A stretch of 42,768 nucleotides of DNA from a virus. Taxonomy: Duplodnaviria; Caudoviricetes. The position numbers and the translations under genes are program-made. Below the pieces are notes generated by a model. It searched no databases and had not been told where the DNA came from. It saw nothing but the letters and a program-made list of their open reading frames with translations. Every line of letters starts with the position of its first letter. The first letter of the stretch is position 1. Location: the IMG/VR virus record IMGVR_UViG_3300025087_000016, positions 1-42,768 of that record; one strand, written 5' to 3'. Of the stretch, positions 7,188 to 20,343 are shown one piece after another.

Positions 7188-7615
7188 AATATAAACTCCA
7201 ATAGAATATTTATATCATCTGTAATTAAATCAGCAAATCCATACATAACGTCAAATTCCCCACACGGAAACTCTGCTTGGTAAATTATTAGTTTTTTACC
7301 ACAACCTTTTGCATATCCAGCTTCTAAATGAGATGATTTTCCAGCAGGTAAAACCAAAATACAGCAATCACACCAATCAAGGAATTTTTTATCTTCAGCA
7401 AAAGCTTTTTGAACTTTACTGTACTTCATAATACTTTCTGCATTTTCTTCATTTAGATCAAAAACTTCCGAAGTAAGTTCTTTCCATGAAAAAATATATC
7501 TTCCTGTACTTCCATCACAAAAACAATCTACTTCATGATTAAATTCTTTTAGTATTTTAGCTATACCCTTTAAATAAACAGAATTTTTCCAGCTACTTGC
7601 AAGATATATTTTCAT
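7184..7615 (-). CDS. Nucleoside 2-deoxyribosyltransferase-like protein
   Basis: KIYLASSWKN...D...LDWCDCCILVLPAGKSSHLEAGYAKGCGK. Confidence 0.8.
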   Translation of the reverse strand: MKIYLASSWKNSVYLKGIAKILKEFNHEVDCFCDGSTGRYIFSWKELTSEVFDLNEENAESIMKYSKVQKAFAEDKKFLDWCDCCILVLPAGKSSHLEAGYAKGCGKKLIIYQAEFPCGEFDVMYGFADLITDDINILLEFIL

Positions 7616-9654
7616 AATTTTGCCAATTCCTCCTTTAATGCTTTTCTGAAAATAGCTGTTTTTACATAAAATCCCTGCTTCTTATCAAGAAATCCACATG
7701 AAACCATAGTTGCTCTAAGTTTATCTGCCTGATCTCTAGTACATCTTGCGAAATCATGTATTTCCTGAAATGTTATTCTCTTTGTATTTATCATGTTGAG
7801 TATGAACGATTTAGCTTCCTCACCACAGTAGCTATATACTAGTTTAAAAACTTCATCTTTTGAATTACTAGTCTTGTCATCTCCTGCTTTGTGGTATGCT
7901 GAATATTCTCCATAACCAAAGCTTTCTTTGTTATATATCTTATTAAGCCAGTTATAGATATACTCAACATGTTCTGTTTTGATTATTACATTTTCACCGC
8001 TGTCATCTGTGCTAAAAAGTCTAACAGCTAAAGCTATACTTAGTCTTGATAGTTTTAATCTTATTGTACTTCCAAGAACTAGAGGAAAGTTAGGTGAGTA
8101 TTTATTTGACATTTCAACAGAGTAGAATAAAATTAAATCTTCAACGTCTTTATCGAATATTACATTGTTAGCTTTTCTACTCCAACCCCAAAGAATTAAC
8201 TTATTACACAAATCACCAGTATAAACATGTTTTATACCTGGAATACCATCTTTTGTTCTAGCTGCATTTATCTTATCCGGATTCACTTCATTTTCAGAAA
8301 TAGTTAGAATAAAATCGAAACGTGAAATATCCTCTTCATTGCCAATTAACTCTTTAACCATGTCACAACCATTGTCGTATAATCTAATAGCTCTTTTTCG
8401 TGGATTTGAAATCCAAAGAAGTCTAACTTTTGCACTTGTACTAGAACTTCCCCCAACGATAGTTCTTTCTGCAATACCTTCAGAACGTATTCTTGTTAGT
8501 TCTGAGAAAACTTCCCTATCTATTCCAGACATTTCGTCTAGTACAACTGCTCGTGAATTATTTAATGGTAAAAGTCCCCAAGTCATTACGTTTATGCTTT
8601 CAAATTTAGTCATTCCTCCAATTAAGCCAGCTATTGTACTATTTTCAGCGCCTTGGATTATTCCTGCTTTATAATGTTTTATTAGTTTAGTTGCTATTTT
8701 TGTTTTTCCTGTACTTGTGTCACCTACTATTAAAGCTTCAGTCCAACCTTTTTCAAAACTTTGACCAAATTTAAAATGCAATACACTATGAAAAACTAAG
8801 TCTACTGAGAACATTATATCGTTTCTGTATCGTATAATAGGTGACAAATTTACAGAGAAGTCGTTGTAAATCTCTTTAAGTTTTTGCTCTATGTTAGTAT
8901 TTTCTACTTGAAATATTTTCAAATCTTCTTTTTCTTGGTTAGTTAATTTGAATTTATCTAAATCATCTTCTTCTTCTTTATACTTCTTGATATAAAAAAC
9001 TAAACTTTGATTCTTTGGCAAAGAAATAGGTTTTCCAGAAAATTTATACTTCTTATTAGGTATGATTTCTGATCCCTCAGCGAAAGCATGGCGTACAATA
9101 AATCTTTGTTCTTTAGTTTCATCTACTCCTTTCATATCAGGTGAAAGAAATATTTCTTGCATATACTTTTGTTCTAATACTTCAATTTTGAATTGTCCAC
9201 ATTGCATAATGCCAAGCTTTCGTTTAATAAGAGATATTTTCTGTACGTTATTACAATCTATTAACTCCAACGGTGATATGTTATCTAGCTTAATTTCAAT
9301 GTGTCCACCTGTTAAGAATAAACCACAAGAAGCGCACATTTCGCCTCTTGTCATATCGCAGTTAACTCTTATTTTAACTGGATATATATATGGTTTAGCT
9401 GCTTCACCCCTTACCATAGCTGTAAAAGTTATAGGTTTATTGATATACTCTTCTTTGATTGAATCGTAGAAGTCAATTTCTTTGTAATCTGTACCAATAT
9501 CATCTTCTTTAATCTCAGATAGTTCAGGAAAAGCCTCTTCAAAAGTTTTTGCATTGTCTATTAGGAGTTTAAACGCTGTTTTAAATTCATTTAGTCTATC
9601 TGAGTTAAAGAATAAGAGAAAATAATCAGTGAAATCCTTATTCTTATATTCCAC
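7612..9654 (-). CDS. mcm: MCM-family AAA+ replicative helicase; N-terminus carries the tail of a Toprim domain
   Basis: Zn finger (C..CASC..C), Walker A GDTSTGKT, sensor region STIAGLIGG, Walker B VVLDEM, arginine finger SRFD; begins with KDFTDYF. Confidence 0.85.
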   Translation of the reverse strand: MEYKNKDFTDYFLLFFNSDRLNEFKTAFKLLIDNAKTFEEAFPELSEIKEDDIGTDYKEIDFYDSIKEEYINKPITFTAMVRGEAAKPYIYPVKIRVNCDMTRGEMCASCGLFLTGGHIEIKLDNISPLELIDCNNVQKISLIKRKLGIMQCGQFKIEVLEQKYMQEIFLSPDMKGVDETKEQRFIVRHAFAEGSEIIPNKKYKFSGKPISLPKNQSLVFYIKKYKEEEDDLDKFKLTNQEKEDLKIFQVENTNIEQKLKEIYNDFSVNLSPIIRYRNDIMFSVDLVFHSVLHFKFGQSFEKGWTEALIVGDTSTGKTKIATKLIKHYKAGIIQGAENSTIAGLIGGMTKFESINVMTWGLLPLNNSRAVVLDEMSGIDREVFSELTRIRSEGIAERTIVGGSSSTSAKVRLLWISNPRKRAIRLYDNGCDMVKELIGNEEDISRFDFILTISENEVNPDKINAARTKDGIPGIKHVYTGDLCNKLILWGWSRKANNVIFDKDVEDLILFYSVEMSNKYSPNFPLVLGSTIRLKLSRLSIALAVRLFSTDDSGENVIIKTEHVEYIYNWLNKIYNKESFGYGEYSAYHKAGDDKTSNSKDEVFKLVYSYCGEEAKSFILNMINTKRITFQEIHDFARCTRDQADKLRATMVSCGFLDKKQGFYVKTAIFRKALKEELAKL

Positions 9655-9656
9655 AT

Positions 9657-9893
9657 TTATTTCTCCACTATGTCAAATAGAGTTTTCTTTCCAGTTTTTT
9701 TAGAGTTCATTGCGCGTACAAGTATTCTAATAGAATTTGCAATTCTACCTTCCTTACCGATTATTTTCCCTAAATCTTCTTTCTTGACACTTACTTCGTA
9801 CAAGATATGACCATTAGAGCTAAGTTCAGTAATCTTAATTGCGTCTTTGTCGTCTACCAAGTTTTCGATAATACTTTTGATGATAGTTTTCAT
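9657..9893 (-). CDS. khpA: KhpA-like single KH-domain RNA-binding protein (start ATG 9893)
   Basis: IIENLVD...YEVSVKKEDLGKIIGKEGRIANSIRILVRA with intact GxxG loop; GGAGGA RBS 7 nt upstream. Confidence 0.88.
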   Translation of the reverse strand: MKTIIKSIIENLVDDKDAIKITELSSNGHILYEVSVKKEDLGKIIGKEGRIANSIRILVRAMNSKKTGKKTLFDIVEK

Positions 9894-9897
9894 TTTT

Positions 9898-10692
9898 TTA
9901 TCCTCCAAATGGTAAGTCTACAATTTTAACTTCTTTTGCGAATCTACAGAGTTCTTTTCCAATAGCTTTCAATCCACGCAAGCCAGCTAAATCTTTATCA
10001 TAACAGATATAAATTAGTTTGTCTTTAAATAGTGGTAACAAATCTCGATTAAAAGAACCTTCTCCAGTCGTAAAAGTTCCTGCATTGAATCCTAACTGGC
10101 AAGCCAATATTGTATCAGGCTCACCAGCACATAAAAGTAAAAAAGGATTTTCAATAAGATTCCTAATTGGGAAAAAATAGCTTTCATTGTGTCCACGAAT
10201 ACCTCTAAATTTAGGGTTTTGTTCTGTTACATGGCCAGATACTAAATATTTCCTGATATTTAGTAACTTGCCATGTTGATTATAAATAGGTATTTGTACT
10301 CTTTTTTCTTGGTCGTTCCAACCTAGTTTAAATTTAATAATAGTTTCTAACAACCATCCCCTGTGAGTAAATAGATAATCTTGAATATGTTTTTTAGAAA
10401 GTAAAAAATTATGCGCTTCTGTTACTTCTGCTTCTGACAAAATACTAGCTTTTGAATCTCCAAGAACTATTTTCTTCGCTTCTTTAAAGCTACATTTATT
10501 CCAGTGCATCACCCATGTATAAATATCTCCACCTTTCTTGCATGAATGACAGAAGAAGATTCCTTCTTTTAAATTTACGCTCAGACTAGGCGTACTTTCT
10601 TCATGAAATACACAAATCACATTCTGTTGTTCAACGTCTGAGCGTAAATTAGGAATATATTTAGAATAGAAATCGTAGTATCGGATACTCAT
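9898..10692 (-). CDS. DNA primase (CHC2 zinc finger + Toprim), C-terminally truncated
   Basis: CVFHEESTPSLSV...FFCHSC zinc finger; CAGEPD and YICYDKDLAG Toprim motifs; ends abruptly at IVDLPFGG. Confidence 0.88.
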   Translation of the reverse strand: MSIRYYDFYSKYIPNLRSDVEQQNVICVFHEESTPSLSVNLKEGIFFCHSCKKGGDIYTWVMHWNKCSFKEAKKIVLGDSKASILSEAEVTEAHNFLLSKKHIQDYLFTHRGWLLETIIKFKLGWNDQEKRVQIPIYNQHGKLLNIRKYLVSGHVTEQNPKFRGIRGHNESYFFPIRNLIENPFLLLCAGEPDTILACQLGFNAGTFTTGEGSFNRDLLPLFKDKLIYICYDKDLAGLRGLKAIGKELCRFAKEVKIVDLPFGG

Positions 10693-10973
10693 TAATTCAT
10701 CCTAACAGGAAAAGTAAATACTTTAGCAGGTTTATTATGTTCAGAACATATATCTTTATCTGGACATGTATCACATTCAAAAATTTTATGTAATTCTTCT
10801 CTAGTCATATAGCTAAGAACTTTTTCATATTTTTCAAGTCCTTCTTTCAAATCAAGTAAAGCAAAAATTCTTTTTTCTTTTCTGTTAGTTTCATCTATTG
10901 CTATATCTATAAGCATTTTCATTTTAGGCAACATCATTTCCATTGCGTCATTATGTGTTTCTACTCTAGTCAT
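10692..10973 (-). CDS. Hypothetical protein with CxxC-x4-C motif
   Basis: GGGAGG RBS; CDTCPDKDIC. Confidence 0.55.
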   Translation of the reverse strand: MTRVETHNDAMEMMLPKMKMLIDIAIDETNRKEKRIFALLDLKEGLEKYEKVLSYMTREELHKIFECDTCPDKDICSEHNKPAKVFTFPVRMN

Positions 10974-11163
10974 AATTAATTTCCTCCCGAATATGATTAA
11001 TACTATCTATAATAGCTTTCGGTAAACCATCGTTCATGATGTTTATGAACATTTCAATTTGTCTTTCAAAATCAAAACGTAAAGCTTCATGTTCTTTATC
11101 TCTTGCCGGTGTTTCCCATTCTAGTTTGTATTTTATTTCGGTTGTGATAGAATATTTGTCCAT
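10966..11163 (-). CDS. Hypothetical protein
   Basis: AGGAG RBS; tightly packed in the operon. Confidence 0.55.
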   Translation of the reverse strand: MDKYSITTEIKYKLEWETPARDKEHEALRFDFERQIEMFINIMNDGLPKAIIDSINHIREEINYD

Positions 11164-15253: not shown

Positions 15254-15670
15254 TTATACCTCACTAATAAACTTTATCTTTCTGCCAGCAACAACGGGAT
15301 TTATATAATAAAATCCTTCAAGTAAATCTTCTAATACTGTTGCTTCAACGATTATAAAGTTATAGTTAAGATCATAGTGATCGCTATCTTCCATAATTTC
15401 TTCTAGTAATTCTTTTGCCTGATCTAAACTTTTAAATACCGCAGTGCGTCCAACCATTTCATTTTTAAATGTAATATGTTTAAGAATATCGCCAACAAAA
15501 TAATGTCCTATTCTGTTTTGCTCTTCAACAACGGGTATAATTTCACTATCGTTATAGCAGAATCCCATTGCTATACTATAATACTTGCCATTTTGTTTAT
15601 GTTTGGCTACTACTTTGTAGCCGGTAAATTCTTTTTCTTCTAATTCTTTCATTAGGTCACACATAATCAT
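15254..15670 (-). CDS. Hypothetical protein (start ATG 15670, coupled to the SNF2 stop)
   Basis: AAGGAGGG RBS and ATGA overlap with the helicase stop. Confidence 0.6.
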   Translation of the reverse strand: MIMCDLMKELEEKEFTGYKVVAKHKQNGKYYSIAMGFCYNDSEIIPVVEEQNRIGHYFVGDILKHITFKNEMVGRTAVFKSLDQAKELLEEIMEDSDHYDLNYNFIIVEATVLEDLLEGFYYINPVVAGRKIKFISEV

Positions 15671-17694
15671 TTCCCTCCTTTTGCCATGTTTCGCAAGTTG
15701 TCCTTTGTGATTACATCCGCTACCGACTTTTTTCCCATTAGAATCTGTAGTATGCCTATGTCTATTGTATCTTGACATACTATGTCAGTATAGCTTACTT
15801 TGTGCTTTTCGACTACATCCTGCGCTCTATCTTCTGACTGGAGCCTGTCTTTTAGAACATAGCTATTAGACATATAAATCACATCCTGCGCTCGTGAAAG
15901 CTTCAAACCCTCACCTCCGCTTGCTGCAGTACCGATTATTACCTGTATTTTACCTTTCTGGAAGCGTTCTACTATGCTTTGTCGAGTGAAAGCGTCTATT
16001 CCGAGACTCGAATCAGGAATGACAAAACTTGAAGTGTTCATGTCTTTAGGTAGTTCTATGTTTTGGAATCTATTTACAGAGGTATATAGGTTATTTATCT
16101 TCTTTAGGAGGTCTATATCTTCTTTAGATACGTTTTGGTTTAAGTCCGGATGTAATTTCTTCACCATTTCACGGTAAGCTTCTTTAATAGCCTCTATGGT
16201 GTTAGCTTCAGGCTTAAGAATAGCCAGAAGCTTACCTAGTGGGCTACTAGGGTCTATGTTGTTACTAGCTTGTCTTTCATCTTCATTGAGCTCTATAGCT
16301 GAACCCACTATACATCCAAAACTTATCTTCATTTCTTGGAGTAGTTCAGCGATCATTTTAACTTCAGGAATAAACCTGGACCAGATTATAAGAGGCTTAC
16401 CATTATTTACTTCCAGGTTTTCTCTTAGAGCTTGTATTTTAGGTTGTTCTTTAAAGCGAAGTATTTTACCCTCTGGGGTTTTTAAAAAACCCGATGTAAT
16501 TTGCGAGAGTCTTAATAGCTGGACAAGTATTATAGGAGCAGATACTTCTTTACCTTCTAATTCAGCCATTGCAAAAGTTACCATTTGGTTATATACGCTT
16601 TGGTTTTCTGGTGGTAATGGAATATGTAGGGGTATATAAAGCTTATCAGGCATATCAAAACACATATCTCTTGTGAAACGTATTGCGTTTTCATAGAGTT
16701 TATCTGAAATAAGCTCATGCGCAGAATGTTTTGGTACTAAGTTCCATCCGTTTCGAGTAAAGTATTTTTCTATGAACCTTTCATATGAAAAGCCGAACTT
16801 GCGTCCCTTGTCTATTATTAAATTTGGAGAAAATAGGTCTATACTGCCTTGTGATACTGGAGTACCACATAAGCCCATTATGTATTCTGTTTTTAATCCT
16901 ATGTCTATTAGGTTTTTAGCTCGTTTAGCAGAAGGATTTTTTATCTTAATAAACTCATCTATGATGATATTTGTTCGGGAGTTTATTAGATTTAGTAACT
17001 CTTCTTTAATACTCGATACGCCTTCAAAGTTAATTATGAAAAAATCTACCTTATCTTTCATTAAACCTATTTCTAAGAGCTTATTCTCTCTTGTGCCTGT
17101 TATCATCAAGTATGATGCTTTGTCTTTAGGCATCCATTTCTGAATTTCATTCGCCCACGTATACATAAGAGTCACAGGACAGATTATAAAGCTTTTGTCT
17201 ATCCGGTTTAGGTTCTCTTTTAAGAATCTATGTCGTTCTATAGCTACCCTAGTTTTTCCAAGGCGCATTTCGTCCAAAGAATAAAAAGCCGGAAATCTGA
17301 CAGCATGTTCTAACTCTAACTGTTGATGTGCGAATGGTTTGCGTATATCTTCAGGTAGGTGCGAATAGTCAAGTAAGTAGGGCCTACTCTGGATGTTTTC
17401 TAGGGTAAGCTTTTCTTTAAGAAGCTTTCGCTTAATAGCTAATTCCTGGTCTTGTATAAGTTCCTGCTTATAATCTTGTAGGAACTTATCAGTAAACATA
17501 AAGTTATCGTCTTCGCTGTATCTTTGAATCAGGAAAGAGAAATTCTTGGCAGTAGTAGGACATATTAAAATAGAAACATGGTCTTTATAAGAGTCAAGAC
17601 CGTACTTGATGTTTTGCTTGTCGTATTGCCAGCTAGATGTATTCTTATCGAATACGAGCTTTATTGCTTTATTTTCGGTAGTTATAGTATGCAT
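15667..17694 (-). CDS. SNF2-family (SF2) helicase/ATPase with inserted DnaJ J-domain
   Basis: Q-motif PFAHQ, DEMRLGKT, IICP, IIIDE..KIKNP..KR, LCGTP, GGEGLKL, QSEDRA; internal IKEAYREMVKKLHPD. Confidence 0.88.
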   Translation of the reverse strand: MHTITTENKAIKLVFDKNTSSWQYDKQNIKYGLDSYKDHVSILICPTTAKNFSFLIQRYSEDDNFMFTDKFLQDYKQELIQDQELAIKRKLLKEKLTLENIQSRPYLLDYSHLPEDIRKPFAHQQLELEHAVRFPAFYSLDEMRLGKTRVAIERHRFLKENLNRIDKSFIICPVTLMYTWANEIQKWMPKDKASYLMITGTRENKLLEIGLMKDKVDFFIINFEGVSSIKEELLNLINSRTNIIIDEFIKIKNPSAKRAKNLIDIGLKTEYIMGLCGTPVSQGSIDLFSPNLIIDKGRKFGFSYERFIEKYFTRNGWNLVPKHSAHELISDKLYENAIRFTRDMCFDMPDKLYIPLHIPLPPENQSVYNQMVTFAMAELEGKEVSAPIILVQLLRLSQITSGFLKTPEGKILRFKEQPKIQALRENLEVNNGKPLIIWSRFIPEVKMIAELLQEMKISFGCIVGSAIELNEDERQASNNIDPSSPLGKLLAILKPEANTIEAIKEAYREMVKKLHPDLNQNVSKEDIDLLKKINNLYTSVNRFQNIELPKDMNTSSFVIPDSSLGIDAFTRQSIVERFQKGKIQVIIGTAASGGEGLKLSRAQDVIYMSNSYVLKDRLQSEDRAQDVVEKHKVSYTDIVCQDTIDIGILQILMGKKSVADVITKDNLRNMAKGGK

Positions 17695-20034: not shown

Positions 20035-20109
20035 AATCAAAAAAAATACTCTAGAAGTAGGTGTTAAGTTTAAGTGAGTTAAAATGGGTTATCAATTTGA
20101 TAGCAAAAC

Positions 20110-20192
20110 TGTTACACTTGTAACATATCAGGTGTTACACTTGTAACAGTAGGCTGAAATTACTGGGGTTTTTGGGTGTTACACTTGTAACA
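20110..20192. promoter_or_regulatory. Three identical 16-bp palindromic boxes TGTTACA-CT-TGTAACA
   Basis: Copies at 20110-20125, 20133-20148 and 20177-20192. Confidence 0.8.
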
Positions 20193-20343
20193 GTTAGGTG
20201 TAGCGATTTTGACACAGGTAATAGTGTGTAAAAATACCTGTTTTTGCTGGTTTTTTTCTCTAAGTGTGTTATTTTTGCCATACAAGTGTGTCATTTTTAA
20301 CTCACTTACCCTAAAAAAGCTGAGTAATTTTAGCCTGATAAAT

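Follow-up and report, generated by a model that had tools for sequence, protein, structure and literature searches.

A phage DnaG-type primase divided inside its Toprim domain between two genes

Background

In phage T4, the mobA element splits the large subunit of topoisomerase II into gp39 and gp60, with the break passing through the metal site of the Toprim domain, and the pieces are described as forming a functional complex (10.1101/2022.08.31.505936). NrdA of phage Aeh1, split by mobE, is present as NrdA-a and NrdA-b, two chains that assemble without splicing and for which the tails derived from the insert are reported to be essential (PMC3045599). The locus considered here lies in the virus record IMGVR_UViG_3300025087_000016, where a primase of the DnaG type is cut inside its Toprim domain and the remainder of that domain is found at the start of an MCM helicase encoded by a second gene. 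The whole stretch of 42,768 nucleotides (nt) was analysed and is referred to below as the window.

The gaps crossed in programmed translational bypassing are described as 50 nt long in T4 and, in yeast mitochondria, as 27-55 nt (10.1101/2022.08.31.505936). Among phage primase-MCM fusions, BcMCM from a Bacillus cereus prophage has been studied (PMC2715239, PMC3273815). A survey of viral replication genes covers many primase-helicase fusions and adjacent pairs, and the accessible part of its text mentions no split internal to Toprim (PMC4889955). No report of a split phage primase was found in a literature search that was thin on subscription journals and did not extend to supplements.

The divided primase-MCM locus

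The virus record that makes up the window is complete and has direct terminal repeats, and it includes terminase, portal and major head genes; the sequencing runs that contain its sequence are groundwater and soil metagenomes. The genes of interest are on the minus strand. The first (9898..10692) encodes a primase chain of 264 residues in which Pfam and a structure model identify a CHC2 zinc-binding domain and a DnaG-type catalytic core; it carries Glu191, Asp232 and Asp234 and stops after the last Toprim strand. Its C-terminus reads IVDLPFGG, encoded by last codons GGA GGA TAA, with GGA-TAA at 9903-9898. The second gene (7612..9654, starting at GTG 9654) encodes 680 residues, of which about 40 finish the Toprim fold and are followed by MCM N-terminal, AAA+ and C-terminal winged-helix-like domains, as judged from Pfam and from the layout in a model of P0026, a natural relative in which the two halves are fused. 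The match of this chain to the MCM family (PF00493) is 26 bits against a cut-off of 23.3. Its reading frame is open from 9672, where it reads HSGEINVEYKNKDFTDYF, and is the same as that of the primase open reading frame (ORF).

The space between the two genes holds an intact khpA-like type II KH gene (9657..9893, minus strand) that encodes 78 residues with a GKEG loop and matches PF13083 at 63.3 bits (cut-off 32.1). A GGAGG at 9902..9906, 8 nt ahead of the khpA ATG, is likely its ribosome-binding site; it shares sequence with the final two codons of the primase and with the first of two copies of TGGAG (9907-9903). The second copy (9667-9663) includes a GGAG at 9663..9666, which stands 8 nt ahead of GTG 9654 and is likely the ribosome-binding site of the second gene, a layout that recurs in the related phages L021 (8 nt) and L018 (7 nt). 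The copies are spaced by 240 nt, 237 of which are occupied by the KH gene, and cutting out the sequence between them would give a frame of 946 codons. The guanine-plus-cytosine fraction of the insert, 0.32-0.33, is the same as that of its flanks.

A first-pass annotation had interpreted this region as a primase-MCM fusion gene split inside its Toprim domain by an exact 240-nt khpA cassette. Its description of the sequence stands: the primase stop at LPFGG, the shared frame, the spacing of the TGGAG copies and the 946 joined codons all match the coordinates above, and Pfam returns CHC2 zinc finger, MCM P-loop and KH_KhpA-B domains at the locus. Its caveat that the GGAG copies may be ordinary ribosome-binding sites agrees with the 8-nt spacing of each from a start codon. 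The role that it gave to the cassette and the repeat, as the cause or mechanism of the split, is not borne out by the comparisons below.

Position of the break in the primase fold

The structure model of the primase chain (mean pLDDT, the predicted local distance difference test score, of 90.4) aligns to residues 119-344 of Escherichia coli DnaG over 173 residues (Z 15.4, root-mean-square deviation (rmsd) 2.7), and also to residues 114-342 of Staphylococcus aureus DnaG and 65-236 of T7 gp4. Because these alignments end at residues 344, 342 and 236, the chain ends one residue short of Asp345, Asp343 and D237, respectively. Asp343 of S. aureus DnaG is described as coordinating a third metal (PMC6755086), and T7 D237 stabilises magnesium according to a docked model (PMC12839067). 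On the model, the cut therefore sits just ahead of the metal-binding Asp345 of DnaG, inside the primase active site, and the proposal of a break within Toprim is upheld.

The missing acidic residues are found on the other chain. The DFTD motif at 9625..9636 (minus strand) provides Asp7 and Asp10 of the second chain, and in a profile of 46 fused relatives the corresponding D-[FL]-T-D motif pairs with the DPD motif of Aquifex DnaG. The earlier assignment of this motif to the primase Toprim fold thus proves correct, and the DnaG-type hallmarks are distributed between the chains, with CHC2 and the Toprim Glu and DxD on the first and the C-terminal acidic motif on the second. The model of fused P0026 (pLDDT 88.1) reaches residue 369 of E. 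coli DnaG (Z 16.9, rmsd 2.5, 195 residues) and aligns to MCM7 over 448 residues (Z 26.6, rmsd 6.6), in line with an MCM N-terminal fold and an AAA+ domain. In that model, the cut position corresponds to the loop that joins the last Toprim strand to the next helix, a loop of 3-11 residues (median 7) among the 46 fused proteins.

Asp7 and Asp10 are invariant in all 23 split MCM chains, as are the Glu and DxD residues in the primase chains, and residues 5-16 form the most conserved segment of the second chain (0.87, versus 0.77 in the AAA+ region). The invariance of catalytic residues on both sides of the break, together with the conservation of this short segment, indicates that both halves are under selection.

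Conservation and age of the break

The search for MCM relatives listed 100 proteins of 374-1190 residues; two shorter matches at 47-52% identity were left aside. Among the matches listed, the window MCM and 22 relatives (53-78% identity) are 525-713 residues long, and no protein longer than 713 residues exceeds 42% identity. All 23 of the close MCM proteins are annotated to start 2-10 residues ahead of an N[KT]DF motif, with a lead of 10 residues in eleven. On the primase side, 40 of 42 close proteins (a count that includes the query) terminate at LPF plus 0-6 residues, and the other two stop earlier. A split at this point is far beyond chance. Homologues within the close clade, a family of uncultured phages, are thus two genes with the same break, an outcome that the first-pass annotation had itself named as counting against its proposal, and one phage, L023, has that break with no gene inserted in it.

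Trees were constructed for the primase (37 of the 42 split proteins and 22 of the 46 fused ones) and for MCM (23 split and 20 fused). Both come from quick searches that gave long-branch warnings in the outgroup, and nine distant fused proteins set the root. In each, the split forms lie on one side of a branch with a support of 100, and fused forms adjoin them and form the outgroup. This topology suggests a single ancient fission of a fused gene. The fused gene is present in cultured Bacillus and Microbacterium phages. Further DNA from the split clade was found for only one phage in the viral collection and for none among bacterial genomes, where a single fused form was detected.

A second break site is present in nine more distant relatives, about 530 residues in, in the linker ahead of the AAA+ domain (L030:2949, L042:2518, L046:1637, L075:1113, L076:4965, L089:6507, L091:6696, L092:2253 and L093:6504). 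The ORFs at these loci overlap by 40-119 nt, with the shift in one direction in five and in the opposite direction in four, and the overlaps contain purine-rich words and ATG or GTG codons. The same gene thus seems to have undergone fission at this site as well.

The gap between the halves

DNA covering both halves is available for five related phages (L018, L019, L021, L023 and L024) and, with the window, for six in total. The distance from the primase stop to the NKD of the second chain is 258 nt in the window, 979 in L018, 639 in L019, 871 in L021, 45 in L023 and 253 in L024, and the gap is out of frame in three of the six (L018, L021 and L024). The number of small ORFs within it is also variable: one in the window and in L024, three in L019, five in L018, up to five in L021 and none in L023, where the stop, a GGAGG and a GTG follow consecutively. 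Among 101 loci with an MCM match, a KH gene is found in two, both of which are copies of the window, and the five relatives have the slot without it.

For several spacer genes, homologues in other phages lie outside the gap, which thus behaves like the small-gene region upstream of the primase. The gap gene of L024 (L024:276-521), for example, resembles genes upstream of the primase in the window (10966-11163, expectation value (E) 0.007), L019 (E 0.003) and L023 (E 4e-5). No match to an endonuclease family at E 0.05 was found for the 14 spacer ORFs of four relatives, and the window gap holds the KH gene. The endonuclease is described as lost in some T4 relatives (10.1101/2022.08.31.505936), and the same loss is possible in the split-primase clade.

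The repeat itself is unexceptional: there are 16 copies of TGGAG in the 13.7-kb minus-strand arm of the window, and GGAG or GAGG stands ahead of the start in 89 of 154 genes called in the window and four relatives, a set that includes some spurious ORFs. Tight packing of one gene would leave about a one-in-three chance that the halves share a frame. The khpA-like gene is a passenger in an ordinary, variable small-gene slot and is not part of a mechanism. Its product is 40-47% identical to the three relatives found, and it scores 64.5 bits against an NCBIfam equivalog with a cut-off of 106, having passed the Pfam cut-off. The protein most likely serves the phage as an RNA-binding accessory and has no connection with the split.

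Two side observations concern this gene. A khpA-like match was obtained in 12 of 50,697 phage records, mostly short unannotated ones that are possibly host DNA, together with one jumbo phage; such genes look uncommon in phages. In addition, a 182-nt contig (depth 3.2) differs at 8 of 97 nt over window positions 9896-9992 and continues from the primase end through the stop into other sequence where khpA begins. A close relative in which another gene occupies the khpA slot is thus suggested, by a single contig of low depth.

Two chains and one active site

The cut occupies a fixed position across the clade, catalytic residues are retained on both sides of it, and what lies in the gap is variable. 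The explanation that best fits, with a probability of about 0.8, is that an ancestral primase-MCM fusion was cut in the loop that follows the final strand of Toprim, and that the halves are translated separately and dock to rebuild the primase active site in trans. In this scheme, each gene would be translated from its own start, with the second gene initiating independently at its GGAG and GTG. The N-terminal piece of the helicase chain, about 40 residues long, would pack against the primase core, as the fold and the conservation suggest, and docking would place Asp7 and Asp10 at the metal site and so supply the missing aspartates. Priming would then require binding of the primase chain to the helicase ring. 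Since the fission, the gap would have served as an ordinary slot for small genes, khpA being its current occupant in the window phage.

Each half has its own start and stop at the level of sequence, and Pfam detects no intein domain. Separate translation and binding of the chains are likely, the start sites being gene-caller predictions. Several points weigh against the proposal. The predicted ATG of the second gene in L024 has no clear ribosome-binding site, and all four loci that end in GGA-stop have an in-frame GGA in the lead before NKD (discussed below). Known split enzymes carry long insert-derived tails of a kind that the window clade does not have. The DNA comes from six phages only, and the trees carry the warnings given above.

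If the proposal is correct, the phage has a naturally two-chain primase, with an active site that is completed only on the helicase. Priming would be coupled to the helicase ring although no covalent bond joins them, and the ratio of primase to helicase might be settable by translation.

Alternative explanations

The first-pass annotation offered three options for the divided gene, namely rebuilding of the active site in trans, ribosome hopping over the insert, and precise excision of RNA or DNA. The first fits best; the other two fail most of the tests available, with one residual signal in favour of hopping. A further reading is that the short primase chain acts alone or in another role, and that the DFTD piece of the helicase is a leftover or serves the helicase only. 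The chain is confidently modelled by itself, at the mean pLDDT given above, and it keeps the invariant Glu and DxD. However, a leftover does not account for the invariance of Asp7 and Asp10 in 23 of 23 chains, within the most conserved segment of the protein, nor for the reported roles of their equivalents in S. aureus DnaG and, in a docked model, T7 gp4. An independent primase chain is therefore considered unlikely.

In the hopping model, ribosomes would leave at the GGA before the primase stop, land at a GGA 240 nt further on, skip khpA and produce a fusion of 946-947 residues, at least as a second route. The window does have matched GGA codons, with a stop directly after the take-off codon and an in-frame landing GGA at 9666-9664, and the linker after a hop would be 11-12 residues, at or just above the top of the 3-11 range of fused proteins. 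In all four GGA-stop loci, an in-frame GGA is present in the lead of 9-15 codons, compared with a background of 35 of 154 genes (23%). The probability of this by chance is about 0.003; counting the window and L021 as one, since they share a junction, raises it to about 0.012. The comparison is post hoc and the sequences are related. The landing GGA is itself part of the start signal for GTG in the window and in L021; it falls within a GAGGA 12 nt ahead of the ATG in L019, and is codon 4 of the second gene in L024.

The remaining evidence is unfavourable to a hop. The primases of L018 and L023 end in TTT-stop, and no matching codon follows the last in-frame stop. A C-terminal Gly is present in only 16 of 40 primases, with Phe in 13, and its scattered distribution on the tree requires at least three changes on starred branches; the sister of the window protein ends in LPFN. 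No take-off hairpin was found in the window (-2.3 kcal/mol, z -0.36) or in the five relatives (z 0.5 or -0.25), and the window does not have a GAG 6 nt ahead of the landing codon. Gaps of up to 871 nt would have to be skipped, as opposed to the lengths known from T4 and yeast mitochondria, and in L019 the resulting linker would be 19 residues. Since L018 maintains the split without any possible matched landing, the clade needs no hop. Hopping in the window is accordingly improbable, and the broader proposal that ribosomes in those clade members whose primase ends in GGA-stop also hop over one or more genes (240-870 nt) to make a fused primase-helicase, by a bypass at least five times that of T4 gene 60, is equally improbable.

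In L023 (L023:3818-3840), the primase TAG and the MCM gene are in one frame, and with NKD only 45 nt beyond the stop, read-through would produce a fusion whose linker is 18 residues long. Decoding of TAG as an amino acid in this phage was rejected, since TAG also terminates other genes called in it; read-through at a low level may nevertheless occur.

Precise removal of the insert at the TGGAG copies, in either DNA or RNA, so that a single gene is restored, is very improbable. The 5-nt direct repeat of the window, deletion of which restores the frame, has counterparts of 7 nt in L019 and 4 nt in L021, but no frame-restoring repeat of 4 nt or more is present in L018 or L023 (L024 was outside this comparison), and the content and length of the gap are unrelated between phages. 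Rfam yielded no match at gathering score in the window and the five related loci, and no group I or II intron core. The 9667/9907 joint, which the earlier annotation had proposed as a check, is absent from the contigs of six DNA runs covering the site, three of which span 9450-10150 in a single contig (one at a depth of 86.5); these runs are possibly the window's own source, and contigs drop rare variants. None of the 14 runs listed as containing the window's sequence is listed as RNA; seven of them were compared with the site, and the one that is possibly RNA gave no contigs. A separate joint of 9186 to 9983, with a side of 21 nt, was set aside as probably belonging to another organism.

A pseudogene killed by a recent insertion, or a wrong assembly, has only the interrupted domain in its favour and is very unlikely, being largely refuted by the presence of the same break in dozens of proteins at 52-78% identity with catalytic residues intact, by the complete record with its terminal repeats, and by the single contigs that span the site.

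Other features of the window

A promoter scan gave 16 matches where 26 were expected, which is at or below chance. At 15667-17694, a gene for an SNF2-like helicase includes a weak match to a DnaJ domain between the helicase lobes (residues 496-538, E 9.6e-6, below cut-off). The long gap between the divergent gene arms contains three copies of a near-palindromic word of 18-20 nt (20108-20194), which are likely operator or origin sites.

Comparison with known systems

The split primase is real and conserved, and is less strange than first proposed. Its closest parallel is T4 gp39/gp60, which is also an essential phage replication enzyme cut in Toprim, with metal-site residues divided between two genes. 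The two differ in that the T4 enzyme is a topoisomerase rather than a primase, and in that its tails are described as about 44 residues long, compared with 0-6 and 2-10 residues here. The gap in the window clade is a variable small-gene slot in which no homing endonuclease was detected and no bypass cassette was seen. The bypass of T4 gene 60 itself resembles the window in having a GGA just before a stop and a matching GGA further on, but it covers 50 rather than 240 nt, the window is without the take-off hairpin and the landing GAG, and the take-off codon is not conserved in the clade. NrdA of Aeh1 is similarly an essential enzyme in two chains; it is a different enzyme, tails comparable to its own are absent from the split primase, and assembly of the two chains is predicted here.

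Fused counterparts are found in Microbacterium phage JingleBells (gp47) and Bacillus phage BSTP5 (BSTP5_032), where both halves match at about 30% identity within one gene of about 960 codons, and which are thus single chains. BcMCM is also a single chain, unlike the split clade, and is likened to it by description only, its primase type included. The KhpA-like protein resembles bacterial KhpA (UPF0109/YlqC) in its KH_KhpA-B domain and GxxG loop, but is phage-borne and falls below NCBIfam equivalog cut-offs.

Because the enzyme differs and neither an endonuclease nor long tails are detectable, the split primase is best placed as a variant, outside the gp39/gp60 and NrdA elements. If the two-chain interpretation holds, primase would join topoisomerase among the Toprim enzymes encoded by genes in pieces, with a split that persists across a deep clade without long assembly tails, and the break shows a point at which the DnaG fold tolerates being divided.

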